Origin: Candidatus Poribacteria bacterium
Lineage (GTDB): Bacteria; Poribacteria; WGA-4E; WGA-3G
Direction of reading: 5' to 3'
NCBI GenBank assembly: GCA_965242965.1
Contig: OZ251518.1
Coordinates: forward strand, 371,680-435,679
DNA: 64,000 bases
The notes under the pieces were generated by a model. The model was not told where the DNA came from. It saw nothing but the letters and a program-made list of their open reading frames with translations, and ran no database searches. The stretch's first letter is position 1, and every line of letters begins with the position of its first letter. Positions 849 to 51,813 of this stretch are shown in pieces. A program made the position numbers and the translations under genes.

Positions 849-3800
849 TCATGCAAATTTGATAAACGCCGCGCTGCAAATGACCTTGGGAGGGACACGG
901 ACGGACTGAATAGGTGGCACCTCGTCGCTTGCCAACGCCGACATATTGTAGCGGTGATAGAGGGTTTTCAACGCCGTTAACAACTCTTCGCCCGTGAGTT
1001 CGGCGCGATAGAGGCGGCTGATTTCGCGTTTGAGACGTTCTGTTAAGCGGCCGCGGAACGCTCGTTCAAGCGTCCCTATCGCGCGCTCTTCCGAGGTGCT
1101 GGCCAGCATCCTTAACTCCCGCAAAATGTATCGTTGCGCGCGGGACAACGTCTGTTTTGGAAAGGCGTTTCGCGTCCGACAGACTTCCGCTGCAGACGCT
1201 TTTTGGACTTGGGTGACGCGGGCGTTGTGATGGGCCGGAAGCGGTTTGCCTTGCAATTCGGCATCGCACTGGAGCAAGCGAAGGATTTCGGCAACATCGG
1301 TAGTCCGTTCAACGCCGTTTTCATCAAGCAGGACAAGCCGTCTTTGCTGTTCCTGTTCCCCGCGACAGCAGACGTAAGTGCCTTCTACTTCGGCGGGGAT
1401 GCCGGTGCGAATGCCATCTCTTAACTCGGCGATGCGCTGATATTCCGCTGGGTTTTGCCGTCTCAATTGCCGCAGCAACTCTTCCGCCTCACTTAATCCG
1501 AAGCCCGGTTCTTCGGTTTCTTCTTCCAAGAGGCTGAGTTGTTCGCCGTTCTGTTCATAAATGGCATACATCGCTTTTTCGTTGAGTTGCTCGGTGTTGT
1601 CAAGGATTGCCGCGTCTTCACCGATGGTATCGTGGATTTCCTGAATGCGGCATTGGAGTTTCTCGCGTAGCCCGAGGTTGCGTTCAATTCCCAATTCCGG
1701 CAGGAAATTGAACCCGTGGATTTCGTCAAATTGACTGCCAATCCTATCAATGCGGCCGAAGCGTTGGATTAAGCGCACCGGATTCCAGTGTAAATCGTAG
1801 TTGATGAGCATGCCGCAATCTTGCAGGTTCAATCCCTCGGCGAGGACATCTGTGGCGATGAGCGTCTCTATCTCGGTTTCATCCGACTTCAAGCGATGTT
1901 GATTGGCGTTCGGTGCGAACCGCTCGACGACGCGCCGCTTCCTATCGCTGCCGTGGCTATGGATAACCTCCGTATTCGCTGTGTGCAGGTTTCGGTAGAG
2001 ATAGTTTGCAGTATCAATATATTGTGTGAAGATGAGCCGTTTTTTGCCCTGCAGCGATGGCGATGCCAGCAACGCTTTCAACTTCTGAAGTTTCGCATCC
2101 TGCGCAGGCGTGATATGCTGAACCTTCTCGAAGATCTGGTTTAGAATACCGATGTCGTTCTGAATCGCCGCGCGAAGTTCAGGGACGTTGAAGTCACGGA
2201 TGTCGTATTGCGCGGAGGCTTCGCGGCGTGCTTCCAGAAACTGTGCAATGTCCCGTTCTTCCGGGCTGATGTCGGTTTCATCAGAAGTGCTCGCTTCATA
2301 GAGGATTTTCTGGGCATCGTCACCGGCTGGCACGATCCCATTTTCAAGCGCGCGGAGGAAATCGACGTGGACGTTATAGAACCGGGAGATAGTTGTCTTG
2401 AAGGCGTAAACACTGGATTCAAACCGTTTGAAGAGCAGAATACGCATGAGGCCCCGCAGGTTTCTACCCGCGCTCTGCAAATCCTGATACGGCGGGACAT
2501 TCTGACTCTCCTCCTTCACATAGTGCCAGAGGCCATACCGTGCATAAGTCAACTGCGCAGCGGTATCCGATTTACCGAGGTAATCGCGAATCTGTGCATA
2601 GAGCCCCTGATAGGTATCTTCAATGCTGTATTCAACCGTCTTGAGGGTGCGCTTCGGAAAGAACTGCTTGGTATCGCCGACGCGGACATAGGCGCGGCGT
2701 TCGCGGTTCAGGTAATCGGTGAATTGCGTTGCATCTACGGGTTCATCTGTCTCGGCATCGTAACCGTACCAACGCAAGATGTGGTTTCGCGTTCGGCGGA
2801 TGAGAATGTGTTGTAAAAGCGTCGGGAGGCTCCGTTCCCCGTTCTCAATCAAGCGGAAGTATTCGCGAAGATTTGGCGCGTCCACCGGCAACTGCGTTTC
2901 GTCGTTGAGATGGAAAAGTTTGAGTTGGTGGTAGATATCCCACGCGCTTTTATTGCGCGGTGTCGCTGTGAGGAAGCAGCACTTCTTATCGCCTGTTGTG
3001 AGGAATTCCTGCAAGACGCGGTAGCGTTGCGTAGTGGCATTTCGGAAGTTGTGGCTTTCGTCAACGAGGACAAAATCGCAGTGTCGATAGCGAATATCTT
3101 CAAAGAGCAATTCCCGCGCGTTTTCTTCCCCGCTACTTAAAAGCCCGGTGGAGAGGATTTGCGCGCCGAGGCGGTAGAGGACGTTATAGGATTCCCACAT
3201 GGACATAAGCGCGGGGGGACAGAGGATGAGCGGACGCGCCTGTTCAACTTGTTCAAAGTGCTTGACAATCGCCGAACCGATGTAACTTTTGCCGAGCCCG
3301 ACGACATCGGAGATGAAGACACCGCCGTATGCGTCAATAATCCGAATGGCTTGGGAAACGGCTACCTGCTGAAAATCCGCGAGTTGCGCTGTCAATTCGT
3401 CTGCCGGTGCGATGCGGCTCTCATCCGTTTCTACCCTATCTTTTACCAATTCGTAGAGCGTCTTCATGTAGATGTCATAAGGACGAACAAGCGCGAGGGC
3501 CCAGGAGGTTTGCATCTCGTCCATCAACGCCTTGTCAAAATCCTCTGCTTCGTCCCATAACGCGTCAAACCAGTCGCGGAGTTGCACCTGATTGGCGTTG
3601 CCGTGCACGACGACGTTCAATTCGGTGTTGCTGGTTAACCCTGCCAAGGTAAGATTCGATGAGCCGACGATGGAGATGCCGGATTCATATCCCGCGTTTT
3701 TGCCATAATCGAAAATATACGCCTTGGCGTGGAAACGCTCCTTCGTGTAAACCCTGACTTTCAGTTGTCCGCTAGCAATCATCTCCACGAGAGTTTTGAT

Positions 3801-4160
3801 GAGTTGCGCCGAGTCATCTGTCTGCGGCATGAATTCCATGCAGGCGCGGAGGTTTTGCGCTGTGTCACCGACGCGTGCCTTGCGTTCAACGCCGCGTGAA
3901 TAGCGGCGCGCCGACTGAATCTCGCCTACAGATGCCAATTGTCGATATCCTTCGGCGAGCTGCTCAATCGTCTCGCGTGTACTCGTATTCCCGATGAGGA
4001 GACGGAGCTCGGTGACGTTTTGCAGTGCTTCCGCGATGCCGGTAAAGCCGGTGAGGAAAAAATATCCGACAGCGAAGCGGGCGCGCTCTGTCTCCTCTAA
4101 CATGAGAGTGACGTTGTCGATGAGTTTTTCGGTGCGATTGTCGATAATGTCTTGTGGCAT
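849..4160 (-). CDS. PLD-family nuclease domain fused to an SNF2/SF2 helicase (1103 aa)
   Basis: N-terminal PLD HxK(x4)D(x6)GSxN motif (FHAKAYIFDYG...GSSNLT). Helicase motifs I VGLGKSY, II LVDESHNF, III LTATPRN, V/VI LIATDVLAEGLNL and QRFGRIDRIGS. The ATG lies 10 nt after the stop of the upstream repeat-protein gene, suggesting translational coupling. Confidence 0.8.
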   Translation of the reverse strand: MPQDIIDNRTEKLIDNVTLMLEETERARFAVGYFFLTGFTGIAEALQNVTELRLLIGNTSTRETIEQLAEGYRQLASVGEIQSARRYSRGVERKARVGDTAQNLRACMEFMPQTDDSAQLIKTLVEMIASGQLKVRVYTKERFHAKAYIFDYGKNAGYESGISIVGSSNLTLAGLTSNTELNVVVHGNANQVQLRDWFDALWDEAEDFDKALMDEMQTSWALALVRPYDIYMKTLYELVKDRVETDESRIAPADELTAQLADFQQVAVSQAIRIIDAYGGVFISDVVGLGKSYIGSAIVKHFEQVEQARPLILCPPALMSMWESYNVLYRLGAQILSTGLLSSGEENARELLFEDIRYRHCDFVLVDESHNFRNATTQRYRVLQEFLTTGDKKCCFLTATPRNKSAWDIYHQLKLFHLNDETQLPVDAPNLREYFRLIENGERSLPTLLQHILIRRTRNHILRWYGYDAETDEPVDATQFTDYLNRERRAYVRVGDTKQFFPKRTLKTVEYSIEDTYQGLYAQIRDYLGKSDTAAQLTYARYGLWHYVKEESQNVPPYQDLQSAGRNLRGLMRILLFKRFESSVYAFKTTISRFYNVHVDFLRALENGIVPAGDDAQKILYEASTSDETDISPEERDIAQFLEARREASAQYDIRDFNVPELRAAIQNDIGILNQIFEKVQHITPAQDAKLQKLKALLASPSLQGKKRLIFTQYIDTANYLYRNLHTANTEVIHSHGSDRKRRVVERFAPNANQHRLKSDETEIETLIATDVLAEGLNLQDCGMLINYDLHWNPVRLIQRFGRIDRIGSQFDEIHGFNFLPELGIERNLGLREKLQCRIQEIHDTIGEDAAILDNTEQLNEKAMYAIYEQNGEQLSLLEEETEEPGFGLSEAEELLRQLRRQNPAEYQRIAELRDGIRTGIPAEVEGTYVCCRGEQEQQRRLVLLDENGVERTTDVAEILRLLQCDAELQGKPLPAHHNARVTQVQKASAAEVCRTRNAFPKQTLSRAQRYILRELRMLASTSEERAIGTLERAFRGRLTERLKREISRLYRAELTGEELLTALKTLYHRYNMSALASDEVPPIQSVRVPPKVICSAAFIKFA

Positions 4161-4170
4161 AGAACCTGCC

Positions 4171-6299
4171 TTATTTCAGGAGCTCTAATAGTGCATTTAT
4201 ACCTTTTACGCCGAGCACAGACAAAACTGTTGCAAAAGCGATGCTGACAATTCCGCCAAGGACGATCTTCCAGGGAGTCAGCGCGCCCTTCAATGCCTCA
4301 ACGGATTTTTCAGTGTTCACCAACTTTTCGTTCATATTGTCTAGTTGCACATCCCGTTTTGCGTCGCGTTCGGCACTAGCGGCGAGATGAGCTTCTGTCT
4401 TGGCTTGGAATTTCCCAATCTGCCGGAGGGACTCGTCAATGCTGCCTAAGCGTGCATCGCGTGCAGTGTCGCGTTCCGCACTGGCGGCGAGGAGTGCTTC
4501 TGTCTTGGCTTGGAATTCGCCAATCTGCCGGAGGGATTCGTCAATGCTGCCTAAGCGTGCATCGCGTGCAGTGTCGCGTTCCGCACCGGCGTTGAGGAGT
4601 GCTTCTGTCTTGGCTTGGAATTTCCCAATCTGCCGGAGGGATTCGTCAATGTTGCCTAAGCGTGCATCGCGTGCAGTGTCGCGTTCCGCACCGGCGTTGA
4701 GGAGTGCCTCTGTTTTCGCCTGGAATTTCGCGATGTCATCTAAGCGCGCGTCCCGTTCGGCATCGCGCGCTGCACTGGCATTGAGGAGTGCCTCTGTTTT
4801 CGCTTGGAATTCCCCAATCTGTTGGAATAACTCCCCGAGGTGTTCCAAGCGTGCATCGTGTGCAGCGTCGCGTTCCGCACCGGCGTTGAGGAGTGCCTCT
4901 GTTTTCGCTTGGAATTTCGCGATGTCGTCTAAGCGTGCATCCCATTCCGCGCCGCGTTCTGCACTAGCGGTGAGGAGTGCCTCTGTCTTCGTTTGGAATT
5001 CGCCAATCTGTTGGAACAACCCCTCAAGGTGTTTCAAACGTGCATCGCGCTCGGTATCGCGTTCGGCACTGGCGGTGAGGAGTGCTTCTGTCTTGGCTTG
5101 GAATTCGCCAATCTGCCGGAGGGACTCGTCAATGCGGACGAAGTGTGCATCGCGTTCGGCATCGCGTTCGGCACTGGCGGCGAGATGGGCCTCTGTCTTG
5201 GCTTGGAATTTCGCGATGTCCTCTAAGCGTGCATCCCATTCCGCGCCGCGTGCTGCACTAGCGTTGAGGAGTGCCTCGGTCTTGGTTTGGAATTCGCCAA
5301 TCTGTTGGAACAACCCCTCAAGGTGTTTCAAACGGGCATCGCGCTCGGTATCGCGTTCGGCACTGGCGTGAGGAGTGCTTCTGTCTTTGCTTGGAATTCC
5401 CCAATCTGCCGGAGGGACTCGTCAATGCGACCGAAGTGTGCATCGCGTGCAGCCTCGCGTTCTGCACTCGCGGCGAGATGGGCCTCTGTTTTCGCTTGGA
5501 ATTTCGCGATGTCATCTAAGCGTGCATCCCATTCCGCGCCGCGTGCTGCACTAGCGTTGAGGAGTGCCTCTGTCTTGGCTTGGAATTTCGCGATGTCATC
5601 TAAGCGTGCATCCCGTGCAGCGTCGCGTTCGGCACTGGCGTTGAGGAGTGCCTCGGTCCTGGTTTGGAATTCCCCAATCTGTTGGAACAACCCCTCAAGG
5701 TGTTCCACTCGGGCATCGCGTTCGGTGTCGCGCGCTGCACTGGCGGCGAGATGGGCCTCTGTCTTCACTTGGAATTCTCCGATTTGGCGGAGGGACTCGT
5801 CAATGCGACCGAAGTGTGCATCGCGTTCGGTGTCGCGCGCTGCACTGGCGTTGAGGAGTGCCTCAGTCTTGGTTTGAAATTCGCCAATCTGTTGGAACAA
5901 CCCCTCAAGGTGTTCCACTCGGGCATCGCGTTCGGTGTCGCGCGCTGCACTAGCGGTGAGATGAGCCTCTGTCTGCTCTTGAAACGCCGCTATCCGCTTG
6001 AACAATTCCTCAAGACTATCTAACCGCGTATCGCGTTTGGCATCTAATGCCTCAACTGCAGTCAATCGTGCATGCGTTTGGGTCTGGAGTTCTACAACGC
6101 GTTGGAGCAATTCCTCAGTGCCGTCCAGTCGTGCGTCGCGCGCTGCGTCGCGCTCAGCACTGGCAACGAGATACGCATCTCTTTTGACATCCAGTTCAGC
6201 ACTACGTTCTTGTATCTTCTCGATCCTCTCCAACCGAGGAATGCTTTCGTGACGTGCCGGCTCCGAAGCATTTTTAGGTTGATTATCGGTAGTTTTCAT
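4171..6299 (-). CDS. Tail-anchored coiled-coil protein made of about 17 tandem 35-aa (105-bp) repeats (unit ~RDARLGSIDESLRQIGEFQAKTEALLNASAERDTA). The frame is broken once near 5330-5375 (ORFs 5328..6299 and 4171..5331).
   Basis: 105-bp periodicity is visible in the DNA (e.g. 4441 vs 4546). C-terminal hydrophobic helix WKIVLGGIVSIAFATVLSVLGV. RBS AAGGAGAAACC before the ATG at 6299. One G is missing in the unit at about 5371-5376 relative to other units (cactggcgtgagg vs cactggcggtgagg). Confidence 0.6.
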
Positions 6300-6388: not shown

Positions 6389-6475
6389 ACGCGTGTTTCG
6401 CCTGTAATCAAATTAGGGTGTTTCATAAATCCGTGTAGGAGAAACCTCCAGGTCCTGATATCGGCCGCGCAAGCC

Positions 6476-6838
6476 AACGCTCGCGGGGGACAGGCCCCCG
6501 CGCTACGAAAAAAACTTCTCTTAGGTCCGTAGGACCTTAATGTCTATAGCACGCGCGTCTGTGAAGAACCCTAAGGTCCTTTAGGTCCTTAATAGATTTT
6601 GCCTTACCGCGTGGTTTTGATTAAGGACCTAAAGGACCTTGAAAAGGGACCTGCACGTTTTTCTATAGACATATAGGACCTAAAGGACCTAAAACGCGAT
6701 TCTTGATGATGGAGATCGCGGGGGACAGGCCCCCGCGCTACGGGAACATCGAGACCAGGAGGTCTCTCCTACCGGGGAGTCGAGACCGGGAGGGCGCGCC
6801 TACGGAGAGAAATCGAGACCGGGAGGTCTCTCCTACCG
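6476..6838. repeat. REP/MITE cluster: family 1, family 3 (x3), and copy 1 of a composite ~190-bp MITE-like element (6520..6700) with TAGGTCCTTAATGTCTATAG-type terminal inverted repeats and internal AAGGACCTAAAGGACCTT palindromes
   Basis: Direct reading. The same composite element recurs at 29090..29280 and 43105..43295. Confidence 0.8.
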
Positions 6839-6859
6839 GCGGTTTGCGCAAGGATTTTT

Positions 6860-7168
6860 TTACAATCGATGCACCGCGACGAACTCCGGCGTGGCTCCCT
6901 CTTCCCAAACGGCAGACGTCCGCCGGTCTTTTTTGCCAACACCGAAAATAACGAATACGTCAGGGGCAACCGAACGCCTGTTTTCGGGGGTGCCGTAATA
7001 GATGAGCAAATTTCCGGACACATACACATCGGGCGCGTGCCGGAAGTGGTGCTCCAACGTCTGAATAAGGGACATCATTACTCTTCGGTGTTTATCGGTT
7101 TCTGCCATAGGTTTTCCATCTGATTCGGGTAGGGTGAGTGTCGGCGCAGAGCGTATTTGTTGCAACAT
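6860..7168 (-). pseudogene. Uma2-family (DUF820) putative endonuclease, truncated remnant (102 aa; ends where the conserved E-V-L-SP segment should begin)
   Basis: Motifs DGKPMAE...H, LLIYY, APDVFVIFGV, DRRTSAVWEEG, PEFVAV are typical of Uma2/DUF820. The stop lies inside the 37-bp direct repeat. Confidence 0.55.
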
Positions 7169-7276
7169 CGTTCCATCTCCTTAGGTGAAGAAATGCGCGC
7201 ATCCCGCGCAGCATCATTACGATTCATCAGATAGTATACCACATTTTCCTGAAAAATCAAACCTTTTCTTTCGGTT

Positions 7277-7465
7277 TCAACTCCGCGCCTTCTTAAGCCT
7301 AGTTTCAACGAGATTGATAACCGCCTCGTAAACGCCATCACGCTCGCCTTGCGTCAATTCCAAGATGTCAAAGATGACGTTGTCAATCGCGATGCGCGCC
7401 GGTGAAGGCGATAAAACGTCCCATTCTTCGGATGCGAGGAGGGATGCATTTACCCCCCCCCTCAA
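7277..7465 (-). CDS. Probable displaced C-terminal segment of the adjacent methyltransferase (62-aa ORF in an alternate frame, beginning inside the G9 tract)
   Basis: Overlaps the MTase ORF by 83 nt in another frame. Its peptide (…DNVIFDILELTQGERDGVYEAVINLVETRLKKA) looks protein-like, whereas the MTase tail after the tract (KCIPPRIRRMGRFIAFTGAHRD) does not. Confidence 0.4.
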   Translation of the reverse strand: MRGGVNASLLASEEWDVLSPSPARIAIDNVIFDILELTQGERDGVYEAVINLVETRLKKARS

Positions 7466-10400
7466 AATTCATGTCTGTTAAGTTAGGGTTAACACATCGT
7501 AGCTCTCCCAAATCCGAGGTTTGGAGTTCTAACTCCCCATATCCTAGGTTTGAGCGACCGTTCACGTTCACCATCAACTGGAAGAAAGTAGAATTGAGGG
7601 AGAAACAGAGAGGTATCCTCAACTCAAGTGCGCATTGGAGTTCCATAAACTTGCCAGTCACATAACACCCCTCACTGGCATACAATGTTTTTGCCGTTGA
7701 ACGCATCCGGTGCGCAAAACTCATATACGGAGGCGGGCGTTTGCCCACATCATACCATCGCCGTCTAGATCGGATGCTCGGCCGCTGAGGCAGTTTCTGG
7801 CTTTCACCCGATTCAATGTATGCCAACGCAGCGGTGCCTCTTAAGGCTTCTCTCTCCTTTTGACACAGAAAGAGTTGATGTGGTGATTGTTCGGGGCGAA
7901 TCAACAGGCTCTCAGTGACTCTCCTGTCGTTGACAATCGGGTGTAAAAACTCTGGCTCAATATGCCACGCCGAAATCGTCTCCGCATCAAGGATGAAAAA
8001 CTGGTTTGCCCCGCTCATGATTCCTCGCCGAATCTGAGCGATGTCGCCGACACGGACGAGTTTATCCGAGCCTTTTTCTAGTAATGTCCAATAGATGTCG
8101 GGAGCGCGCAGATACTTCGCGCCCCATTTGTTTCCGGTATACTTCGTCTTTGCATCCATTCCGGCGGCTAAAAGTGCATCCTGCGAGAGAAGGTGAATTC
8201 GATATTCAGGCAGAGCATTCCGCTGGATTTCGGTTTCGATTTCGTAAAAGATGACAGGATCCAAAATAGCCTCAAACGGTTCGGTAAAGTTAACAAACCG
8301 CACAATGTCTTGCAAACCTGATGCGCTATCTCTAACCGGGGCGGAGATGAGACAAATAGCAGTGTTGATATTTACGGCTTTGAAGGAACGTCGTGCCGCG
8401 TTGTCCAAAACCAGTTTGAGATGACACCGCTTAAGGAGGAATTCCTGCAAATCTTTGCCGAAGTCCGCATCTAACCACGATCTGGATGTGATAGTGCAGA
8501 AGGTTCCTTTGGGATTTAGCAACGAGAGTCCGTGAAAGTAGAAGTAGACGTAGAGATCGCTGTTGCCATCTAGTTTATGCTTCACGGCAGACGCGGGGTT
8601 TTCCTTCGTATCCTTCTCCGGTTGATACCCGAAGAATGCAGGGAACGCCTGATAAACGGAACGCGCCAACTTGGCTTTATACGCCTTCGTGTTAGCGGGT
8701 GTAACCGCGTCTCGGGCTAGCGTCGGGTCTGTGAGTTTTTTCGTTGAAACGTAAGGCGGGTTTTCTATCACGATGTCAAAACCACCATACTGTTTGAAAA
8801 TCTCAACGAAGGCAATGTCCCACACGAAAGGTGGAACTGCATCTGACGTAAGGGCATGCTGGGCACGTTGGAGGTTGTTGAGATTCGCCTGTTGAAGTGC
8901 CAACTCCTGTTGCTTTTGCCGAGTTGCAAGATCTAATTGCGCTGCCTGGGGTTTCTCAATCCCGTCAAGCGTCAGTTGTTCAGCCGGATCTTCAAGCCAT
9001 TCCTGTAAACCTGCAATGCCTTCCAAAATTTGGCTTTCCTGCGACTGCAGTGTCTCCCGAAAGAGCAAGTTCTCGGCGCGTTGCACATCCGCTTTCTCAC
9101 GATATTTCCGCTCACGTTCGTTGTGATAAAACTTCAGTTTCTCTGTCTGGTGGAATACGATTTTGCGCGAGATGTCAGTCGGCACGCCGCTGCCCAACGC
9201 GCGCGTCTGCGCGAGGTTCATCCCACCGATGTCCTGCACCAGACTATCGCCGTGACGAATGTTAAACGAAAAATCAGGCAGCAAGGGCTCCTCGCGAATC
9301 TGCAGTTCCGCGGTGGAAATCTCTGCCTCAATGATGAGCGCGAGCCAGAGGCGTAACTCGGCAACTTTGCATGCCCACGGCATCACGTCTACGCCGTAGA
9401 GATTCTTGCCGATAATCGCCTTGCGGCGTTCAAACCTTGAGGTAACAGATGCACCGAGGTGCCGTGCGGCGCGTTCCCCCAGGTCATCGAGAATATGGAG
9501 CATGCCGACGAGAAACGAACCGCTGCCACACGCCGGATCCAACACCGTGAGACGGTTCAGATGCGTCGCGATATCACCCCACTGCGCGGCGAGGTGGGCA
9601 TCGGCATCTTCCTTCTCTGTTTCATCGAACGTAAAGAGTGCGGCGTAAAATTGATGCTTATGCGCCTCACCGATGTGATTTGCGAGGTTATCTACGAGCG
9701 CGAGACGGCACATCATATCTATCTCGATGCGCGGCGTGTAGAAGATGCCGGCATCGCCGCGTTCATCGGTTTCAGCGGAGACACTGACGAGACTCTCGTA
9801 GACTTTGCCGATCATCTCGGGGTCTACGGCGACTTCCTGTTCCAGCGGGGTATCCTCGGCGATGGTGAAGTTATATCCCTCGAAGAACTGGAAGATGTCG
9901 CGCCATAAATCATCGGGAATCGTGGTGGCATACTCGGTATCCCATTCGTTTTCTCGGAATAAGCCGCCGTTGAGATAGGGCGCGTGCTGAAGCGTTTCGC
10001 GGATGTTGTCAGGAAAGTAACGATATCCGCCGTGAAACTTCTGATTGAAAGCGGCGAAGAAGAGGACGTTGAGCCACTTTGCCACGAAGGTATCCGCTGG
10101 TTGCGTTGCGTTTTGATACGCCTGCCAAAACGTGTGCAGGAAATCGGTGTCGTTTCCGAGCCACCGTTTTCGCTGGATGAAATAGAGGAAGAGGCAGCGG
10201 CTGAGGAATTGTTGGGCTGCATCGTGCGCCCACTTTTTATCAGCGGTTTGCGTTTCCAACTCGGTTTGGAGGTTTCTGAAGACGCGCTGATAGTCGGCGA
10301 AAAACTGCGCTGTCACGGCATCGACATCGAAGGCGGCATCGTGCTGTTTGGTAATTTGCAGAGGTGTCAGCAGCTCTGGATTTGGGAAGAGGCTCTCCTG

Positions 10401-10886
10401 TTGGCCGTCAATGGCTATCGTCGCCAGATCGAGCATTGCGATACGTTCGGCGGCGGTGCGGAGTTTTTCATCGGGCGCGACAGTGATGCGCCGGAATCGG
10501 TGGCGTGCCTTGTGTTTCTTGCTTGCCTCGCGGACGAGTGTGACGTTGACGAAGTGCCAGTGGTCTTGCGCAATATTGCTAAAGATGTAGAGCGCGTGCG
10601 GGAAGCGCGTCTGCAAGTGCGCGATGACGCGGCGTTCGGCGGTCTTGCGGGGTGTTTCGGTATTGAGGCGCGCGTATATGATGTGAAAGTCGTTATCCCT
10701 ACCCCCGGCGGCAAAGCGTCGCGGTGCCTCGGCGAGGCAGTCGGCGATGGCTTCCGGGATGTTCTCAATCGGTTCATCGATGCGGTGATAATTGAGTTCT
10801 ACCCAAAAGAGTTCGCGCAGGGGTTCGATGCCGCGGAGGTTTTGTAGCAGAGTTAAGATGCGTTCGGTGTTTTCGGGTGTTGGCAT
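7383..10886 (-). CDS. Large gamma-class N6-adenine DNA methyltransferase, 1167 aa (Type IIG / BREX PglX / DISARM DrmMI-like). The true C-terminus is probably in the 7277..7465 frame.
   Basis: Motif X AGIFYTPR, motif I VLDPACGSGSFLV, motif IV IENPPY. A long N-terminal region precedes the MTase core. The C(9) run at 7453..7461 sits at the frame junction. Confidence 0.75.
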   Translation of the reverse strand: MPTPENTERILTLLQNLRGIEPLRELFWVELNYHRIDEPIENIPEAIADCLAEAPRRFAAGGRDNDFHIIYARLNTETPRKTAERRVIAHLQTRFPHALYIFSNIAQDHWHFVNVTLVREASKKHKARHRFRRITVAPDEKLRTAAERIAMLDLATIAIDGQQESLFPNPELLTPLQITKQHDAAFDVDAVTAQFFADYQRVFRNLQTELETQTADKKWAHDAAQQFLSRCLFLYFIQRKRWLGNDTDFLHTFWQAYQNATQPADTFVAKWLNVLFFAAFNQKFHGGYRYFPDNIRETLQHAPYLNGGLFRENEWDTEYATTIPDDLWRDIFQFFEGYNFTIAEDTPLEQEVAVDPEMIGKVYESLVSVSAETDERGDAGIFYTPRIEIDMMCRLALVDNLANHIGEAHKHQFYAALFTFDETEKEDADAHLAAQWGDIATHLNRLTVLDPACGSGSFLVGMLHILDDLGERAARHLGASVTSRFERRKAIIGKNLYGVDVMPWACKVAELRLWLALIIEAEISTAELQIREEPLLPDFSFNIRHGDSLVQDIGGMNLAQTRALGSGVPTDISRKIVFHQTEKLKFYHNERERKYREKADVQRAENLLFRETLQSQESQILEGIAGLQEWLEDPAEQLTLDGIEKPQAAQLDLATRQKQQELALQQANLNNLQRAQHALTSDAVPPFVWDIAFVEIFKQYGGFDIVIENPPYVSTKKLTDPTLARDAVTPANTKAYKAKLARSVYQAFPAFFGYQPEKDTKENPASAVKHKLDGNSDLYVYFYFHGLSLLNPKGTFCTITSRSWLDADFGKDLQEFLLKRCHLKLVLDNAARRSFKAVNINTAICLISAPVRDSASGLQDIVRFVNFTEPFEAILDPVIFYEIETEIQRNALPEYRIHLLSQDALLAAGMDAKTKYTGNKWGAKYLRAPDIYWTLLEKGSDKLVRVGDIAQIRRGIMSGANQFFILDAETISAWHIEPEFLHPIVNDRRVTESLLIRPEQSPHQLFLCQKEREALRGTAALAYIESGESQKLPQRPSIRSRRRWYDVGKRPPPYMSFAHRMRSTAKTLYASEGCYVTGKFMELQCALELRIPLCFSLNSTFFQLMVNVNGRSNLGYGELELQTSDLGELRCVNPNLTDMNFEGGGKCIPPRIRRMGRFIAFTGAHRD

Positions 10887-10961
10887 GCCGTTGTCTCCGA
10901 TTCTTAAGGTTTACGATATTATAGGAGAAAAGCGGATTTTAAGTCAAGGAATTTCATGATC

Positions 10962-11140
10962 GGCATGGCGAGGGACAGGCCCTCGCCCTACGGGAAAACG
11001 GACCGTTCCGGATACCGTAGCGCGGGGGCCTGTCCCCCGCGAGCGTTCAGTAGACCGGAGCCTGGCGAGGGACAGGCCCTCGCCCTACGGTGTTCGATGC
11101 GGTTTCAGCATGGCGAGGGACAGGCCCTCGCCCTACGGGG
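10962..11140. repeat. REP cluster (family 1, four or more hairpins)
   Basis: GGCGAGGGACAGGCCCTCGCCCTACGG units read directly. Confidence 0.85.
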
Positions 11141-11142
11141 AA

Positions 11143-12333
11143 TTAGAAGACCTCGCCCATCGATTTTTCGACGATGTTCACCGCTTCTTCAACATGCCCT
11201 GTGTTGATATTGAGCGGTGGCAGGAACCGAAGGACATAATCGTTGGTGCAGATGGTGACGAGCCCGTTTTCGATGCACTTGGCGGCGAGAGGTTTCGCGT
11301 CCACTTCCATCACCATGCCGCGCAGCAACCCTTTCCCGCGCACTTCCTTGACAGGATATTTCCCCTTGAGTTCCAGCAACCCGCCGGCGAGGTAATTCCC
11401 CATTTTCACGGCGTTGCTGGCGAGATTCTCGTCCAAGATGGTCTGCACGGTTGCGCGAGCCGCTGCTGTGACAAGCGGGTTTCCGCCGAACGTCGCTGCG
11501 TGTGTGCCGGGGACGAAGCTGGCGGCTATCTCACGTTTCGCGAGCATTGCGCCGATAGGGACACCGCTGCCGAGTGCCTTCGCCATCGTGATGACATCGG
11601 GGACAACGCCGTAACTCTGGTAGCCGAAGAAGGTGCCGAGTCGCCCCATCGCCGTTTGCACCTCGTCGAAAATGAGGAGCAGGTTATGTTTATCGCACAG
11701 TTCGCGGAGCCCCTGCAGGTAACCGTCGCTAGGGATGTTGACTCCACCTTCGGACTGAATCGGCTCTACCAATATCGCGCAGGTTTTCTCGTTGATAGCG
11801 GATTCGGTTGCGGGCAAATCATCAAACGGCACGTAGGTGAAGCCTTCCAGCATCGGTTCAAACCCGACGTGGTATTTCGTCTGCGCCGTGGCGGTGATGG
11901 TTGCCATCGTTCGCCCGTGGAACGAATTCTCCATCGTGATGATTTCGTAGGCATCCGGTCTGCCGCTGTCTTTGGCGAATTTGCGCGCCAGTTTAATGGC
12001 TGCTTCGTTCGCCTCCGCGCCGCTGTTGCAGAAGAACACCTGGTCCATGTCGGAATTCTCCACTAACATCTTCGCCAATTCTGCCTGCGGTTGGATGTAG
12101 TAGAGGTTGGAGGTGTGCAGCAGTTTGCCTGCCTGCTCCTGAATAGCGGCGACGACGTTCGGATGGCAGTGCCCGAGTCCGTTGACGGCGAGTCCGCCGA
12201 GGAAATCGAGATACTGCTTGCCTTCGGCATCCCAGAGATAGGGTCCTTCGCCTTTGACGAAAGCGAGGTTTCTGTCGCCGTAGGTATTAATGATGTATTC
12301 TGTCGCCATCGTTTTGATTTCAGCGGTTGTCAT
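11143..12333 (-). CDS. argD: Class III (acetylornithine/ArgD-like) PLP aminotransferase, 397 aa. The ORF-caller extension to 12741 is not coding.
   Basis: MTTAEIK start with RBS AGGAGA. LGHCHP, VFFCNSGAEANEAAIKLARK and DEVQTAMGRLG motifs typical of ArgD-type aminotransferases. Confidence 0.7.
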   Translation of the reverse strand: MTTAEIKTMATEYIINTYGDRNLAFVKGEGPYLWDAEGKQYLDFLGGLAVNGLGHCHPNVVAAIQEQAGKLLHTSNLYYIQPQAELAKMLVENSDMDQVFFCNSGAEANEAAIKLARKFAKDSGRPDAYEIITMENSFHGRTMATITATAQTKYHVGFEPMLEGFTYVPFDDLPATESAINEKTCAILVEPIQSEGGVNIPSDGYLQGLRELCDKHNLLLIFDEVQTAMGRLGTFFGYQSYGVVPDVITMAKALGSGVPIGAMLAKREIAASFVPGTHAATFGGNPLVTAAARATVQTILDENLASNAVKMGNYLAGGLLELKGKYPVKEVRGKGLLRGMVMEVDAKPLAAKCIENGLVTICTNDYVLRFLPPLNINTGHVEEAVNIVEKSMGEVF

Positions 12334-31884: not shown

Positions 31885-31913
31885 GAGGCAAACTTTTTTT
31901 GGAGGAACCAGCA

Positions 31914-34814
31914 ATGAAAAACGTAGATGCTGAACTCATTGAAGCCTTTTTAGATGGCGACGAAGGTGCTTTCACCAAGTTGGTGAGGAAGCATGAAAAG
32001 GCTGTCCATGCGCTTGCGTGGCGGAAGGTAGGCGATTTTCAGGCCGCTGAGGAGATTACGCAAGATGCGTTCGTTAAGGTGTATCACAAGTTGTCCACGC
32101 TCAAAAACCGGAACCAGTTCGCGGGCTGGCTATATGTGATTACAGACCGGCTCTGTATCGAGTGGCATCGCAAGAAACGCGTTCCGATGGGGTCCTTGGA
32201 GGCGATGGCACCCGGTGAGCTTGAGGAGCACTATTACTCCGGGCATCTGGCGGCGGAACGGGAAGCGGCGGTTGCCGAGCGTAAGCGCGAGGCAGTCAAG
32301 CAAATTCTCCGGAGACTCCCGGAGAGTGAACGCACGGTTGTCTCGTTGCACTATCTCGGCGAGAAGACTTGCGAGGAAATCGGCGAGTCCCTCGGCGTGT
32401 CAACGAACACCGTCAAGAGTCGGCTGCATCGCGCGCGGAAGCGATTGAAAGCCGAGGCAGAGTCGCTCCGCGAGATGTTGGGCGATGTCCCCCTTCCAGC
32501 GATGTTCACGGGTAATATCCTACGTGCTGTTGCGCGTGCAACACCGCCTGCGCCGAGCGGCGGTAACCCGTTAGTGCCGTGGGCGGTGTCGCTTTCAACG
32601 GCGGTATTGCTTTTCTTGCTGGCCGGTTTGGGTGCGCAGCACCTGCTCCGTTTCCAGCAACCGTATAGTTTTGTGGCAGACTCGGCAATGACGGTGGAGA
32701 TTGTGGATGCGCCGGTGAGTCTTCCGCAGCAGGCGAAGCCGGCGTTGCGGACGCGGTTCGGCAACACGGCTGAGTCGGGTAAGCACCGCGGTGCTGGTTC
32801 GCGGACGGATGCGTTACTTGTAACCGCTGCTGCGGATGATGCACAGGTCTTGGATGCCGCACAGCGGTGGCATCAAACTAATGGGCCTTCAGGCGGCGCG
32901 GTCACGTCCCTTTTTGTCACCTCTGAAAATGAACTCTATGCCGTTGGAGAGGGGAGCCTTTTCAAGTTGGCTGCCGATAGAGAGACTTGGACTTTCGTCA
33001 CCGGCGATTTGCCTGTTGACAATTTCGGTTCGCCGATGGCAGAGCGGGGTGACACGCTCTATATTGCCTGCGAATCAGAATTGTTTGCGTCAACCGATGG
33101 CGGTGAAACGTGGGATTCTGTCGCGCCATGTCCGCCGGGCAATCGCGCGCTTGCCTTGCTCATTACCGACGATGCGTTTTATCTCGCGCTTGAGGCAGAG
33201 GGGATGTTTCGTTCCACCGATGAAGGTAAAACGTGGCACCCGTTTAATGCGGGGTTAGCGCAGCCGTTGGCAGTGCGTCATCCGTCGACAGCCAACGCGA
33301 TTTTGTCAGCCGCTGTTCTTGGAAACACAGTGTTTGCCGGAACAAGCCAAGGGCTCTATCGCCTTCATTCCAATAGAGAAGTGTGGGAGAAAATGCCGGT
33401 TGCAGGCAACCGCAAGATCTCTTCCATCGCTGTTGTTGAAAACCGCGTCTATTTCTGCGCCGATAAACAGCATGACGAACGTTCGTCGATGCTCTTCGTT
33501 TCAATCGACTACGGGGATTCGTGGGCAGAAATTACGCCTGAACTCCGGCAGAGGATGACACCGCTCACCGTCGGAGGTGTCAAATTAGTAGGCGCAGGGA
33601 AAACGGTCTTGGGACTCGGTGCCGGTGTGATACGTTCTACCGATAATGGCAACACGTGGGCCTATCTCGGTTTCCACCGGGATGCGTTTACCCTCCCGAT
33701 GTTCCCCGCTGTGGCGTTGGACGAAAAGACGTTCTTCTTAACGGGGCCGATGGGAGTCAGGCGTTCAACCGACGGCGGCCACACATGGCATGAATTGATG
33801 AATGGCATTGTGCAGACCCGAGTTTTGGATTTGGCACGGGTTAATAACGTTCTCTACGCCGCAACCTACGGAGGTATCTTCCAATCTGCGGACAGCGGTG
33901 AACGGTGGACAGAAGTGACTATCGTTGGGTTACCGCCGCATTTTGAGGGCCGTTTAGGACATCCGAAAATTATAGTAGCGAACGGCACGCTTTACGTTAA
34001 AGCCTACCACTTGACCGAATGCTTTCTATTAGAGTTAGTTTCGGATGGGAATGTGTTGGTGCCGGTTGAAGGCATTCCACCGTTTGGAGAAGAGTATGGC
34101 GAGTGGTTAAGGAAAAATGCGGAGATTTTCTCCAAGACGAGCCTTGGTGAAGAAGCGGTGAACGAACTCGTGGGACAGAACCGGCGGGCATTTCAGAAAC
34201 ATGCGCGAGCCGGCGCATTCGCTGTCAGTGGGGAGACATTCTACTTTGGAGACGAACAGCGGCGGCTCTTCCGATGGAGGTTTGGCGGCAGTGAATGGCA
34301 CGACACAGGCCTGGAAAATGCCCGCAGTCTTTCTCCCGACACTGACGATGGTTTCCGGTTAGCCGCTTCCAATGACGTTGTCTATGTTGGAAAAGGTGAT
34401 GGACACCTCTTCCAATCGCGGGATAGCGGTGACACGTGGCAGGACATCACCGCGAACCTCCCCGCGTTCGGCAGTATTCAGGAGATAATGTTCGCGGGTT
34501 CAGCCGTATGCGTCGCCACAGATACGGGAGTCGTCACGTCAAGCGATGGCGAAAATTGGTATCCTATCACCGATGCATCGGAAGTCCCGATTGTGATGCG
34601 CGAGTTGGCGATAGACGGCTCTCGTGTTTACGGTGCAGCTGGTGAGGCTGTCTATCGGCTAAAACACGAGACCTTGACGTGGGTGCAGATTGCATCAGAG
34701 CTGCCGGAGGGAGTGACTTCTCTCGTTGCTGATGGGGATGTGTTGTATATAGGCACAGAGGGACGCGGCGTGCTTCGGTTGCAGGTTAACCGCGACGAGG
34801 AGATAGACAAGTAG
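31914..34814 (+). CDS. ECF sigma factor (sigma-70 regions 2 and 4) fused by one TM helix to a large extracytoplasmic BNR/Asp-box beta-propeller domain. A one-component sigma/anti-sigma-like regulator, 966 aa.
   Basis: Sigma region 2 (QDAFVKVY...WLYVITDRLCIEWHR) and region 4 HTH (LPESERTVVSLHYLGEKTCEEIGESLGVSTNTVKSRLHRARKRLK). TM PWAVSLSTAVLLFLLAGLG. Eight or more S-x-D-x-G-x-T-W repeats. Confidence 0.75.
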   Translation: MKNVDAELIEAFLDGDEGAFTKLVRKHEKAVHALAWRKVGDFQAAEEITQDAFVKVYHKLSTLKNRNQFAGWLYVITDRLCIEWHRKKRVPMGSLEAMAPGELEEHYYSGHLAAEREAAVAERKREAVKQILRRLPESERTVVSLHYLGEKTCEEIGESLGVSTNTVKSRLHRARKRLKAEAESLREMLGDVPLPAMFTGNILRAVARATPPAPSGGNPLVPWAVSLSTAVLLFLLAGLGAQHLLRFQQPYSFVADSAMTVEIVDAPVSLPQQAKPALRTRFGNTAESGKHRGAGSRTDALLVTAAADDAQVLDAAQRWHQTNGPSGGAVTSLFVTSENELYAVGEGSLFKLAADRETWTFVTGDLPVDNFGSPMAERGDTLYIACESELFASTDGGETWDSVAPCPPGNRALALLITDDAFYLALEAEGMFRSTDEGKTWHPFNAGLAQPLAVRHPSTANAILSAAVLGNTVFAGTSQGLYRLHSNREVWEKMPVAGNRKISSIAVVENRVYFCADKQHDERSSMLFVSIDYGDSWAEITPELRQRMTPLTVGGVKLVGAGKTVLGLGAGVIRSTDNGNTWAYLGFHRDAFTLPMFPAVALDEKTFFLTGPMGVRRSTDGGHTWHELMNGIVQTRVLDLARVNNVLYAATYGGIFQSADSGERWTEVTIVGLPPHFEGRLGHPKIIVANGTLYVKAYHLTECFLLELVSDGNVLVPVEGIPPFGEEYGEWLRKNAEIFSKTSLGEEAVNELVGQNRRAFQKHARAGAFAVSGETFYFGDEQRRLFRWRFGGSEWHDTGLENARSLSPDTDDGFRLAASNDVVYVGKGDGHLFQSRDSGDTWQDITANLPAFGSIQEIMFAGSAVCVATDTGVVTSSDGENWYPITDASEVPIVMRELAIDGSRVYGAAGEAVYRLKHETLTWVQIASELPEGVTSLVADGDVLYIGTEGRGVLRLQVNRDEEIDK

Positions 34815-48624: not shown

Positions 48625-48654
48625 TTGCAATGCATTGCGAATTTAAGGTATAAT
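48625..48654 (+). promoter_or_regulatory. Sigma70 promoter TTGCAA-N18-TATAAT. The ATG at 48661 lies 7 nt downstream, so the mRNA is leaderless or near-leaderless.
   Basis: Consensus -10. No RBS before the ATG. Confidence 0.5.
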
Positions 48655-48660
48655 CACATT

Positions 48661-51600
48661 ATGACAACACTTAACCTGAAACCAACTCACAAAGCGATAA
48701 CCGCCTATTATGCCGCACTCAACAGGTATCAACAGCACGGGGTAACCCACGAAACCGCCGTGCGCGCCGCCTTTCAAGCACTCCTCGAAGCCTGCACGCG
48801 ACAACTTGACTGGACGCTGATTTGTGAACAGACACTACGCCTCCCCGATAGAAATCCTATCCGCCTCGATGGCGCGCTGCTCGACGAACATAGTTTGCCC
48901 CGCGGCACCTGGGAGGCAAAAGGCGTTAAAGGAGCTCTCCGCGCCGAAATCAATAAGAAATTCGACGCAGGCTATCCCCAGGACAACATCCTCTTCCAAA
49001 CACCGGAACGCGCCATTCTCTATCAAAACGGACGCGAAGTGATGGACGCAGACATCACCGCACCGGAAACGCTTGTCACGGTGTTGCAGACGTTCTTTGC
49101 CTACGAGCGCGCGAACGCCGCCGAATGGCGCGCCGCCGTCGCACGCTTCAAAGAACTTGTCCCCGAACTCGGGGCGGAGGCGGCGAACCTTATCCAAACG
49201 CAGCACGAAACAAACGCGCAATTCCGCGCCGATTTCACCGCGTTTCACGAACTCTGCAAAACCGCCATCAACCCGAATCTCTCGGCGGCGGCTGTCCAAG
49301 AGATGCTCGTCCAACATCTTCTCACCGAACGGATGTTCCGCACTGTCTTCGAGGATCCGGATTTCGCCCACCGCAATATCATCGCCCGCGAAATTGAAAA
49401 AGTCCTCAAGGGAACACTGGCGAACTTCCTCAACCGCGGCCAACTGCTCCAAAAACTCACGCCGTTCTATCGCGAAATCGAACGCGAGGCAGCTACACTC
49501 GTCGATTTCTCGCAGAAACAGCACTTCCTCAACACCGTTTACGAGCAGTTCTTCCAAGGCTTCTCCGTGAAGCAGGCGGATACGCACGGCATCGTTTACA
49601 CCCCGCAGCCTATCGTCGATTTTATGGCGAACAGCGTCCAGCATATCCTCCAAACCGAATTCGACCACGCGCTGGCAGATGAAGGCGTTCACATCATCGA
49701 TGCGTTCGTCGGCACCGGCAACTTCATCGTCCGACTCATGCGCGACATCCCCAAGACGAAACTGGAGGCGAAATACCGAAACGAACTCTGGTGCAACGAA
49801 GTGCTGTTATTGCCTTATTACATCGCCACGCTCAACATCGAGCACGAATTCTACGCCGCCACCGGCACCTATCTGCCGTTTGAAGGCATCTCCCTCGTGG
49901 ATACGTTCGAGTTAGCGGAAGACCGGCAGTTGTCGCTCTTAACCGCTGAAAACACGGCGCGTGTGGCGAAGCAGCAAGCCTCGCCGATGTTCGTCGTCAT
50001 CGGAAATCCGCCCTATAACGCCGGGCAAATCAACGAAAACGATAACAACAAAAATCGGAATTATCCGACGCTGGAGGCGCGCGTGCGAGAAACCTATGCG
50101 AAAGACTCCACCGCAACGCTCAAAAATTCGCTCTATGACACTTACGTCAAGGCACTTCGTTGGGCTTCCGATAGGATTGGCAAACAGGGGATCGTCGCGC
50201 TCGTCACGAATAACAGTTTTCTTAGCGGCACCTCGTTTGATGGCATGCGGAAACACCTCGCTGAAGACTTTGATGCCATCTATGTCGTCGATTTGGGCGG
50301 CAATGCGCGGCGTGATAAACTTGTCGCTGATGCAAGCGTTTTTGGTATCCGCGTCGGGGTGAGTATTAATTTTTTCGTGAAAAACCCTTCCCGGCGATCG
50401 CGGGGGACAGGCCCCCGCGCTACGGTGCCTTCCGGTCTCGATGGGATCGCGGGGGACAGGCCCCCGCGCTACGGTAACGGGGAAAATTCCGCGCGCATCT
50501 TCTATTACCGCACCGATGACGCGTGGAACAAACACCAGAAATTCGATTTCTTGACGCAAACTGAACACGTTGGGAATGTGGACTGGCAAACGCTAGAACC
50601 CGATGCACGAAATACCTGGCTCACCGAAGGACTCAACCCTGAATTTTTGACGTTCATGCCGATAGGGAGCAAAACGGCAAAACGGGAAAAAAAGGAGCCC
50701 GCCGGGGTGATATTCCACCAGTTCAGCAACGGTTTGAAAACAAACCGGGATGCATGGGCTTACAACTTCAACCGCGATGCGCTCGCTGAAAACATGCAGC
50801 GCATGATAGGTGCCTATAACGCGCAGGTCTCCCAGTGGCGCGATAGGGACGACAACGCGGAGATAAGTGTTGACGATTTTGTCGATGCCGACTTGCGGAA
50901 AATCAAATGGAGTGGCGATTTGAAAACCGCTCTCAAAAAAGGGGTTTTCGCGGCGTTTTCCAATGAAAAATTGCGAACGTCTCTCTACCGTCCTTTCACC
51001 CGTTCTTTTCTGTTCTTCGACCGGCTCATGAATAACGGCACCTTTCTTCAGCCCTATATCTTCCCTACGCCGGAGACAGAAAAGGAAAATCTCGTTCTCT
51101 CTGCCGCGGGAACTGGGCATCGGACGGGATTTGGCTGTCTCGTCTCAAACGTCATTCCCAATGTAGATCTTGCCTATGAAAAAGGGCAGTGCTTCCCGTT
51201 CTACTTTTACGATGAAGATGGCACTAACCGCCGAGAAAACATCACCGATTGGGCATTGGAAAACTTCCGCAAGCACTATGGCGACGATACCATCACGAAA
51301 TGGAACATTTTCCACTACACCTACGGTATCTTGCATCATCCTGCGTATCGCGAACGTTACGCCGCTGATCTCAAGCGCGATTTACCGCATATCCCCTACG
51401 CCGACGATTTCTGGGCATTTGCAAACGCCGGCGCACGGTTAGCGGAACTTCATGTCAACTACGAGGCGCAGCCGGAGTATCCGCTCACGTTTGTCGAAGA
51501 TGCGACGCGGCAGTTGGATTTCCGCGTGGAAAAAATGAGGTTGTCCAAGGACAAGACCTCGCTTATCTATAACGAGTTTCTGACGTTGGAGGGGATTCCT

Positions 51601-51813
51601 GCGGCGGTGTTTTCGTATCGCTTGGGTCAGTATTCGGCGTTGGAGTGGGTGGTGAAGCAGTATCGTGTGAAGGCGGATGCGCGGAGTGGTATTGTGAACG
51701 ATCCGAACGATGCGTCGAATCCGCGTTATATCGTGGAGCTCATCGGTTCGGTGGTTACGGTGAGTTTGGAGACGTGTAAGATTGTTGGGGGTTTGCCATC
51801 GTTTCGTTCGTGA
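48661..51813 (+). CDS. Type IIG/IIL (MmeI-like) restriction-modification enzyme: N-terminal PD-ExK nuclease motif + gamma-class N6-adenine MTase + C-terminal TRD. Has an in-frame repeat insertion at 50395..50470.
   Basis: D76...E85-A-K87 (LLDEH...TWEAKG), comparable to MmeI D70/E80/K82. Motif X VYTPQ, motif I IIDAFVGTGNF, motif IV GNPPYNAGQ. Confidence 0.65.
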   Translation: MTTLNLKPTHKAITAYYAALNRYQQHGVTHETAVRAAFQALLEACTRQLDWTLICEQTLRLPDRNPIRLDGALLDEHSLPRGTWEAKGVKGALRAEINKKFDAGYPQDNILFQTPERAILYQNGREVMDADITAPETLVTVLQTFFAYERANAAEWRAAVARFKELVPELGAEAANLIQTQHETNAQFRADFTAFHELCKTAINPNLSAAAVQEMLVQHLLTERMFRTVFEDPDFAHRNIIAREIEKVLKGTLANFLNRGQLLQKLTPFYREIEREAATLVDFSQKQHFLNTVYEQFFQGFSVKQADTHGIVYTPQPIVDFMANSVQHILQTEFDHALADEGVHIIDAFVGTGNFIVRLMRDIPKTKLEAKYRNELWCNEVLLLPYYIATLNIEHEFYAATGTYLPFEGISLVDTFELAEDRQLSLLTAENTARVAKQQASPMFVVIGNPPYNAGQINENDNNKNRNYPTLEARVRETYAKDSTATLKNSLYDTYVKALRWASDRIGKQGIVALVTNNSFLSGTSFDGMRKHLAEDFDAIYVVDLGGNARRDKLVADASVFGIRVGVSINFFVKNPSRRSRGTGPRATVPSGLDGIAGDRPPRYGNGENSARIFYYRTDDAWNKHQKFDFLTQTEHVGNVDWQTLEPDARNTWLTEGLNPEFLTFMPIGSKTAKREKKEPAGVIFHQFSNGLKTNRDAWAYNFNRDALAENMQRMIGAYNAQVSQWRDRDDNAEISVDDFVDADLRKIKWSGDLKTALKKGVFAAFSNEKLRTSLYRPFTRSFLFFDRLMNNGTFLQPYIFPTPETEKENLVLSAAGTGHRTGFGCLVSNVIPNVDLAYEKGQCFPFYFYDEDGTNRRENITDWALENFRKHYGDDTITKWNIFHYTYGILHHPAYRERYAADLKRDLPHIPYADDFWAFANAGARLAELHVNYEAQPEYPLTFVEDATRQLDFRVEKMRLSKDKTSLIYNEFLTLEGIPAAVFSYRLGQYSALEWVVKQYRVKADARSGIVNDPNDASNPRYIVELIGSVVTVSLETCKIVGGLPSFRS
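50395..50470. repeat. Two family-1 hairpins (CGATCGCGGGGGACAGGCCCCCGCGCTACGG) inserted in-frame in the RM gene
   Basis: They encode ...RSRGTGPRATVPSGLDGIAGDRPPRYG... Confidence 0.8.

Follow-up and report, generated by a model that had tools for sequence, protein, structure and literature searches.

The 64,000-nucleotide stretch of contig OZ251518.1 analyzed here (the window) derives from a Candidatus Poribacteria bacterium and carries, on its minus strand, a gene for a large DNA methyltransferase that is interrupted near its 3' end by a run of nine G residues. Poribacteria are sponge symbionts. The open reading frame (ORF) at 7383..10886 encodes 1167 aa ending in ...NFEGGGKCIPPRIRRMGRFIAFTGAHRD*, and its product is identical to the database protein P0165, from a 5.66-Mb contig; the relatives of this protein carry the name Candidatus Poribacteria. 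An ORF of 62 aa in another frame (7277..7465, minus strand) overlaps its end and carries ...ASLLASEEWDVL...ETRLKKARS*, that is, ...ASLLASEEWDVLSPSPARIAIDNVIFDILELTQGERDGVYEAVINLVETRLKKARS*. Downstream, on the same strand, lies a gene of 1103 aa (849..4160) coding for an HKD (phospholipase D-type) nuclease fused to a SNF2 helicase. The comparative evidence presented below makes it likely that the G9 run is a contingency-locus tract, acting as a length-variable ON/OFF switch of this Eco57I-type methyltransferase, and that the window captures the gene in the OFF length.

The run lies at 7453..7461, as G9 on the coding strand and C9 on the plus strand, exactly where one ORF hands over to the other, as a previous sequence-only reading had stated and as the sequence and the ORF coordinates confirm. 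On the minus strand, the junction reads ...ATGAATTTTGA-GGGGGGGGG-TAAATGCATCC..., with G9 at 7461..7453, or, with a fuller upstream flank, ...AATTTTGA-G9-TAAATGCATCC...; the "locked" allele of the tract is written as GGAGGTGG. At G9, the frame enters the tail KCIPPRIRRMGRFIAFTGAHRD (7383..7452, minus strand; GGG completed by the last G's of the tract) and ends at a premature TGA, and the native-frame 3' end, VNASLLASEEWDVL...ETRLKKARS* (7277..7453, minus strand), a predicted helix-loop-helix and conserved C-terminal anchor, is read only at G8, G5, or G11. Deleting one G in silico gives a single ORF of 1202 aa, bearing out the prediction that the two ORFs would fuse into a protein of approximately 1200 aa, while adding one G leads through EGGG to an immediate TAA and a product of 1145 aa. 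Single-base changes therefore toggle between full-length and truncated products (1202 aa at G8, 1167 aa at G9, and 1145 aa at G10). The tract lies at nucleotide 3426 of about 3609, i.e., at 95% of the gene, and the last 56 residues are removed when it is off. That the 62-aa ORF might be translated separately, from a TTG start, was considered and rejected, as this start is a mechanical product of the ORF listing and the poly-G, when read in another frame, supplies the first residues.

An uninterrupted homopolymer of about eight or more bases within a reading frame is a hallmark of contingency loci, and here the G9 sits inside the 1202-aa frame. It is the longest G/C homopolymer of the window, in which the only other G/C runs of at least eight bases (19217-19224 and 45331-45338) are both intergenic. 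Under an independent and identically distributed model based on base composition, about 0.6-0.8 G/C runs of at least nine bases are expected per 64 kb, so that the run by itself is not improbable and its position is the striking part. In 837 kb of Poribacteria DNA, 11 of the 23 G/C runs of at least eight bases fall at the methyltransferase junction. An Rfam scan of 6200-11300 gave no credible match, and a promoter and terminator scan of 6800-7600 gave nothing bearing on the tract. As a separate observation, the two intergenic G8/C8 runs are the ends of two copies of a repetitive extragenic palindrome (REP)-like element (catggcgagggacaggccctcgccctacgg) that is repeated in the intergenic DNA of the window (19190-19224, 45318-45338, and about 10960-11140). 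In distant Poribacteria, other G/C runs of at least eight bases are located 225-1300 bp upstream of the methyltransferase start (C10 at 9776 of L005, G8 at 9506 of L012, and G8 at 8716 of L011), and these might be promoter-proximal tracts.

By its domains, the protein is a predicted Eco57I/MmeI-type gamma-class N6-adenine DNA methyltransferase with a target-recognition domain. The Pfam families Eco57I (98.8 bits, cutoff 25.3) and MmeI_Mtase (42.3 bits, cutoff 27) are both matched, and the S-adenosylmethionine-binding motif I DPACGSGSF (9513..9539, minus strand) and the catalytic motif IV NPPY (8751..8762, minus strand) are invariant in both of our alignments (A1 and A2). The variable target-recognition region follows at 7482..8396 (minus strand; aa 831-1135). 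This order, an Eco57I-family methyltransferase domain and then a recognition domain in one chain, is that of Type IIG enzymes, and the PADLOC Type IIG models are indeed the nearest (REase_MTase_IIG at 1e-50), matching only parts of the chain: they align from about aa 75-185 on, and no nuclease family was detected in aa 1-180. A profile search of the PDB aligned residues 749-1049 to the catalytic-plus-recognition core of CamA and M.BseCI; the PDB sequence search retrieved only CamA, BseCI, and weak BrxX matches, none of which covers the C-terminal hairpin. Membership in the PglX/BrxX family of bacteriophage exclusion (BREX) systems was rejected: the best NCBIfam BREX model scored 71.7 bits against a cutoff of 900 and there is no brx/pgl operon, the neighbors in the window and at syntenic loci being an aminotransferase, an MR_MLE enzyme, Uma2, and the HKD-SNF2 helicase, with no pglZ, pglW, or brxC in these gene maps. 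Class 1 of the defense island system associated with restriction-modification (DISARM) was likewise rejected, since DrmD reached 141.7 bits against a cutoff of 610, the DrmMI matches were partial, and the syntenic gene maps contain no DrmA/DrmB. No BREX, DISARM, or methylation-associated defense system (MADS) model came near its curated cutoff for the window methyltransferase.

The fused G8 protein retrieved more than 100 homologs of about 1195-1205 aa covering 100% of the query; therefore, the fused form is the native one and the ETRLKKARS ending is the native C-terminus, as the sequence-only reading had proposed. The 3.4 kb upstream of the tract contain no second lesion and match the intact P0001 at 93% identity across the full length. 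Within the C-terminal half, conservation is highest in the last 56 residues, which share 91-100% identity with close relatives that reach just 54-59% in the recognition region (aa 831-1135). Their motif, LD.I.FD.L.LT..ER...VY, is kept in relatives from Chloroflexota, Desulfobacterota, and Verrucomicrobiota, and no natural relative lacking it was found among those aligned. The AlphaFold2 model of the intact ortholog P0001 is poor overall (mean predicted local distance difference test, pLDDT, 59.5; predicted template modeling score 0.40), and its use was confined to secondary structure and confidence over the last 60 residues (pLDDT 75-87), where the junction falls in a loop followed by two helices (1159-1171 and 1176-1198).

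DNA was fetched for 96 related loci, and tract states were read at the identical junction, where the variable target-recognition domain meets the conserved C-terminal segment. G9 places the gene out of frame in the window and at L082, L085, L086, L001, and L002, and in another register at L003. Out-of-frame states are also given by G7 (L074), by G8 in another register (L084), and, in a second clade, by C14 (L088, about 3544-3557; L089, about 3650-3663), beside which L008 has C6 at the junction. The gene is in frame with G8 (L081), G11 (L087), and G10 (L006), as well as with an interrupted GGGAGGG (L096) or with no run at all (L083 and 22 more distant loci). Altogether, 11 of the 14 tract-bearing loci are out of frame versus none of the 24 that lack an uninterrupted tract (Fisher p = 3e-7). 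The run is retained between flanks that vary (TTTGA, GTGAA, AAGGT, GTGGA, TTGAT, CAATTA, AAAGA), and the presence of poly-G in one clade and poly-C in another suggests independent origins of a homopolymer at the same junction. The syntenic loci share the order aminotransferase, methyltransferase, Uma2, HKD-SNF2 helicase, and TGT; between different samples their tract state differs, while the flanking housekeeping genes are 94-96% identical to those of the window. Furthermore, out-of-frame G9 alleles with identical flanks occur in independent scaffold-type assemblies (5-160 kb) and in megabase single-contig metagenome-assembled genomes (MAGs), which, judging from record names such as "PANK22-1", appear to be short-read and long-read assemblies, respectively. 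Searching Joint Genome Institute (JGI) metagenomes for the DNA pattern of the conserved 3' segment gave 0 matches, and a protein-guided scan of the same metagenomes gave only 6 distant loci, none with a tract.

The same pattern is found in the 144 distinct proteins with a recognizable junction. Among those encoded with an uninterrupted G-run, 30 of 41 (about 73%) are out of frame and 11 are ON, compared with 0 of 24 for the interrupted GGGAGGG, which is always ON, and 2 of 78 for proteins with no run (G-run versus all others, Fisher p = 2e-19). The share of 30/41 does not differ from the two-thirds expected at random length (p = 0.41), and alleles in natural Poribacteria populations would thus be about one-third ON and two-thirds OFF. 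ON and OFF members are intermixed within clusters of at least 90% identity. Within single clusters of this kind, the flank NLTDMNFE is followed by EGV, EGG*, EGGV, EGGGK, or EGGG*, corresponding to G5, G7, G8, G9, and G10, and the flank NLIxVK is likewise followed by KGGV, KGGGRR, KGGG*, or KGGGV. Close relatives therefore display length polymorphism (G5, G7, G8, G9, G10, and G11) comprising both ON and OFF alleles, another characteristic of contingency loci. The sequence-only reading had pointed to phase variation of the methyltransferase, and the conservation of the tract, its range from G5 to G11 among near-identical alleles, and the high OFF share strongly support that proposal. It had also regarded orthologs with the KCIPP... 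tail of the window protein as potentially contradictory; such orthologs do exist (P0165, P0178, P0181, and P0015), but they are in the same G9 state and do not refute the proposal, because the same 90% clusters hold full-length G8 alleles.

The selection acting on the 3' segment was evaluated on the 168 nt downstream of the tract in 10 alleles (the window and nine relatives). Variable sites are distributed 7/7/29 over the codon positions of the native frame, and none of the 10 alleles has a native-frame stop codon. The ratio of nonsynonymous to synonymous polymorphism (pN/pS) in this frame is 0.12 for all alleles and 0.13 for the OFF alleles alone, compared with 1.9-4.1 in the other two frames. 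The out-of-frame segment is therefore under purifying selection even among OFF alleles, as expected of a contingency locus, and the KCIPP... tail, whose frame has a pN/pS of about 2-4, is out-of-frame read-through, as had been suspected. Together, the length polymorphism, the mixing of ON and OFF alleles in two assembly types, and the purifying selection indicate a hypermutable contingency tract rather than an isolated sequencing error or a dead pseudogene.

By analogy with known contingency loci, slipped-strand mispairing at replication would add or remove G's at a high rate. From the sequence itself, the frame at G8 (also G5 and G11) continues to ...ETRLKKARS and yields the full 1202 aa (ON); at G9, as in the window, it changes to one stopping after about 22 foreign residues (OFF); and at G10 or G7 it meets TAA directly (OFF). 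The truncated protein is probably inactive, because the helical hairpin that it loses is conserved from Poribacteria to Chloroflexota and Desulfobacterota. Since the HKD-SNF2 helicase has no recognition domain of its own, the loss of the methyltransferase/recognition protein would be expected to silence both modification and restriction and to spare the cell self-attack, as happens in Type I, Type III, and Type IIG systems.

The alternative that the extra G is a homopolymer error of sequencing or assembly, the real gene being an intact G8, had been left open by the sequence-only reading. The window protein comes from a 5.66-Mb single contig, which points to a long-read assembly, the consensus of long reads is weakest at long homopolymers, and frameshifts occurring only at homopolymers are also what errors would give. 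However, the 30 out-of-frame proteins among the 41 with a tract are far above any consensus error rate, G9 with the same flanks recurs in independent assemblies of the two kinds, and both shifted frames are found together with in-frame three-base changes (G5, G8, and G11). As a general explanation, such error is unlikely, and we give it little credit overall, although it may still apply to the single consensus base of the window. A fixed inactivating lesion in a decaying gene would agree with the predominance of out-of-frame alleles among those bearing a tract, with the truncation of the neighboring Uma2 gene in the window by an inserted repeat, and with the lack of a helicase partner for some paralogous copies. 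This pseudogene scenario is nevertheless highly improbable, the least credible of those considered here, considering the 3.4 kb upstream free of a second lesion and 93% identical to the intact P0001, the 3' segment devoid of stops in its native frame in all 10 alleles, with a pN/pS of 0.13 when the OFF alleles are taken alone, and the occurrence of ON alleles interspersed with OFF ones in clusters of at least 90% identity.

Two further possibilities concern what the G9 state itself produces. It could be a programmed state of a leaky gene, in which the full-length protein arises through RNA polymerase slippage on the C9 template or +1 ribosomal frameshifting. G9 is the modal length (about 7-8 of the 12 poly-G loci at the DNA level, 6-7 of which need the same one-nucleotide loss), the downstream frame is still under purifying selection, and for A/T runs of at least nine bases, slippage is an established phenomenon in bacteria and endosymbionts. 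On the other hand, both registers are seen, since there is an immediate stop in L003, P0020, P0047, and P0048, whereas L084 and P0005 would have to gain one base; in-frame G8, G10, and G11 alleles are common, so that the alleles do not share any one recoding event; neither a stimulatory structure nor a slippery context was found; and slippage on G/C runs is far less documented than on A/T runs. We consider recoding very unlikely, slightly more so than sequencing error. Alternatively, the truncated product could be a functional isoform with intact methylation and altered oligomerization or coupling to HKD-SNF2, the tract then toggling restriction instead of methylation. The position of the tract at 95% of the ORF, past motif I, NPPY, and the recognition region, would fit this idea, unlike the situation in Cj0031 of Campylobacter jejuni, where the tract precedes the recognition domain, and so would the model, in which the C-terminal segment appears as a separate helical hairpin joined by a loop. 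The presence of LD.I.FD.L.LT..ER...VY in all full-length relatives across phyla suggests, in contrast, that the hairpin is an integral part of the enzyme, and the isoform is unlikely, if somewhat less so than error or recoding.

The length-variable switch remains the interpretation that we favor, with several points weighing against it. The comparison of alleles is made between genomes, and length heterogeneity within a population, like reversibility, is a prediction. All data are consensus metagenome assemblies, in which long G/C runs are error-prone on every platform, and the proteins within clusters are phylogenetically non-independent. G9 is by far the commonest length, unlike what a free random walk would give. 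The location of the tract past the catalytic and recognition domains means that some activity might remain in the OFF protein, the overall quality of the structure model is low (pLDDT 59.5), and the role of the helicase, like the dependence of restriction on the methyltransferase, is presumed by analogy. A bolder version, which we regard as doubtful, would have these sponge symbionts run a selected bet-hedging switch on a two-gene defense module, which may uncouple restriction or partner binding from methylation and not simply kill the enzyme. That the tract is selected is suggested by the appearance of poly-G and poly-C at the same junction and by its site between a swappable recognition cassette and a 3' anchor, and the uncoupling by the removal of only the last 56-aa hairpin.

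The partner protein displays the Pfam domains PLDc_2, Helicase_C, and SNF2 and matches the PADLOC candidate C3a139 "HKD+Snf2" (E = 1.8e-83; a model without a curated cutoff) at near full length, residues 4-860 aligning to positions 3-781 of the 948 of the profile. In 68 of the 96 fetched loci, from many phyla, the methyltransferase is accompanied by a linked homolog of this helicase; therefore, the two genes form a conserved restriction-modification (RM)-like module, experimentally uncharacterized, in which HKD-SNF2 is presumed to be the restriction or effector component. The methyltransferase is present in Poribacteria genomes as two paralogs at separate loci. One 5.01-Mb MAG has both copies (L001 and L002) at G9 and OFF, and on one 100-kb contig, one copy is tract-free and ON (L083) and the other G9 and OFF (L086); the copies at L001 and L086 have no helicase partner within the fetched flank.

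The recognition region itself seems to evolve in discrete types. Its identity to L081-L087 and L096 is either 85-97% or 54-59%, with flanks (the N-terminal 700 aa and the last 56 aa) at 79-100%, and blastn displays the same mosaic of a variable recognition region between conserved flanks. These types occur between strains at one syntenic locus and between the two paralogous loci, a pattern that looks like the cassette exchange of specificity between conserved anchors.

Several other features of the window deserve mention. Between the helicase gene and the remnant of Uma2, tandem repeats of 105 + 84 nt (4229..6207) produce two Ala/Glu/Arg-rich ORFs on the minus strand (4171..5331 and 5328..6299) with no family match; a shorter repetitive ORF occupies the corresponding place in L083 and L085. 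A direct repeat of 37 nt, with exact copies, is found at 6352-6388 and 6841-6877, 489 bp apart, and the Uma2 ORF (6860..7168, minus strand) is cut to 102 aa at its second copy, its relatives measuring 248-258 aa. The element between these repeats (about 6499-6877) recurs several times in L082 and looks like an insertion resembling a miniature inverted-repeat transposable element (MITE). Farther away, a second RM-like gene (48625..51813, plus strand; 1062 aa) contains the Type ISP coupler, N6_Mtase, and Type_ISP_C specificity domains (E = 9e-103) without the N-terminal nuclease/helicase part of canonical Type ISP enzymes. Finally, an ORF of 971 aa (31899..34814, plus strand) combines the N-terminus of an extracytoplasmic function (ECF) sigma factor (Sigma70 r2, r4) with BNR/sortilin-type beta-propeller repeats.

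Homopolymer phase variation of RM genes is textbook knowledge for pathogens adapted to a host, Campylobacter, Helicobacter, Neisseria, and Haemophilus among them. The nearest known parallel is Cj0031 of C. jejuni NCTC11168, a CjeNIII-type Type IIG enzyme and, like the window protein, a large Eco57I-family adenine methyltransferase (about 1240 aa). The poly-G inside the Cj0031 gene counts about nine bases, with G9 as the ON length and G10 as the OFF length, and a one-base change splits the gene into two annotated ORFs (PMC4889913). Both genes have a strain-variable recognition region and a tract in only a subset of alleles, some of them interrupted: the stable 4G-A-4G in Cj0031 of C. jejuni 81-176 (PMC4889913) and GGGAGGG here. 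They differ in the site of the tract, which in Cj0031 is at nt 2573 of 3732, before the recognition domain, and in the window gene after it. In addition, Cj0031 is described as a fused nuclease-methyltransferase, whereas the window protein has no detected nuclease domain and a linked HKD-SNF2 gene, and the host is not a Campylobacter but an uncultivated sponge symbiont known here from sequence alone.

A parallel from a non-pathogen is the G-tract in pglX of Streptomyces coelicolor (phage growth limitation, Pgl; BREX type 2), likewise a poly-G in a PglX/Eco57I-like adenine methyltransferase of a phage-defense system, whose contraction and expansion give Pgl+ and Pgl- at 1e-2 to 1e-4 (Sumby and Smith, 2003, as cited in PMC4365076). 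In contrast to pglX, the window protein falls below the BREX PglX cutoff (71.7 versus 900 bits) and its partner is the HKD-SNF2 helicase. There is also a resemblance to the phase-variable Type III mod and Type I hsdM/hsdS genes of phasevarions (Haemophilus, Neisseria, and Helicobacter): repeats in the methyltransferase or specificity gene toggle it, switching off the recognition subunit disables restriction too, and the allelic diversity of the recognition domains is high. Those genes differ from ours in enzyme architecture and in repeats that are usually 5' or central in the gene. Our searches of the literature returned no report of such variation in Poribacteria or in any other sponge symbiont. 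The mechanism is an ordinary one and not a new kind; the host phylum is new for the phenomenon, and the population-level ON/OFF pattern of metagenomes, the convergence of poly-G and poly-C, and the 3'-terminal site also merit notice.

If the switch proposed here is real, the annotation of MAGs should neither label such "frameshifted" methyltransferase genes pseudogenes nor have them "corrected" for supposed homopolymer errors, and metagenome assemblies would hold a readable population signal, in this case about one-third ON and two-thirds OFF. Genomes in the ON and OFF states that share a recognition domain, such as that of P0001 (no tract, ON) and the window (G9, OFF), whose recognition domains are 97% identical, would constitute a natural experiment that could link a methylation motif to the methyltransferase/HKD-SNF2 module through PacBio kinetics, provided that these are retained in the raw reads of the MAGs. 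More broadly, stochastic ON/OFF switching of defense would also operate in the dense, phage-rich microbiomes of sponges.

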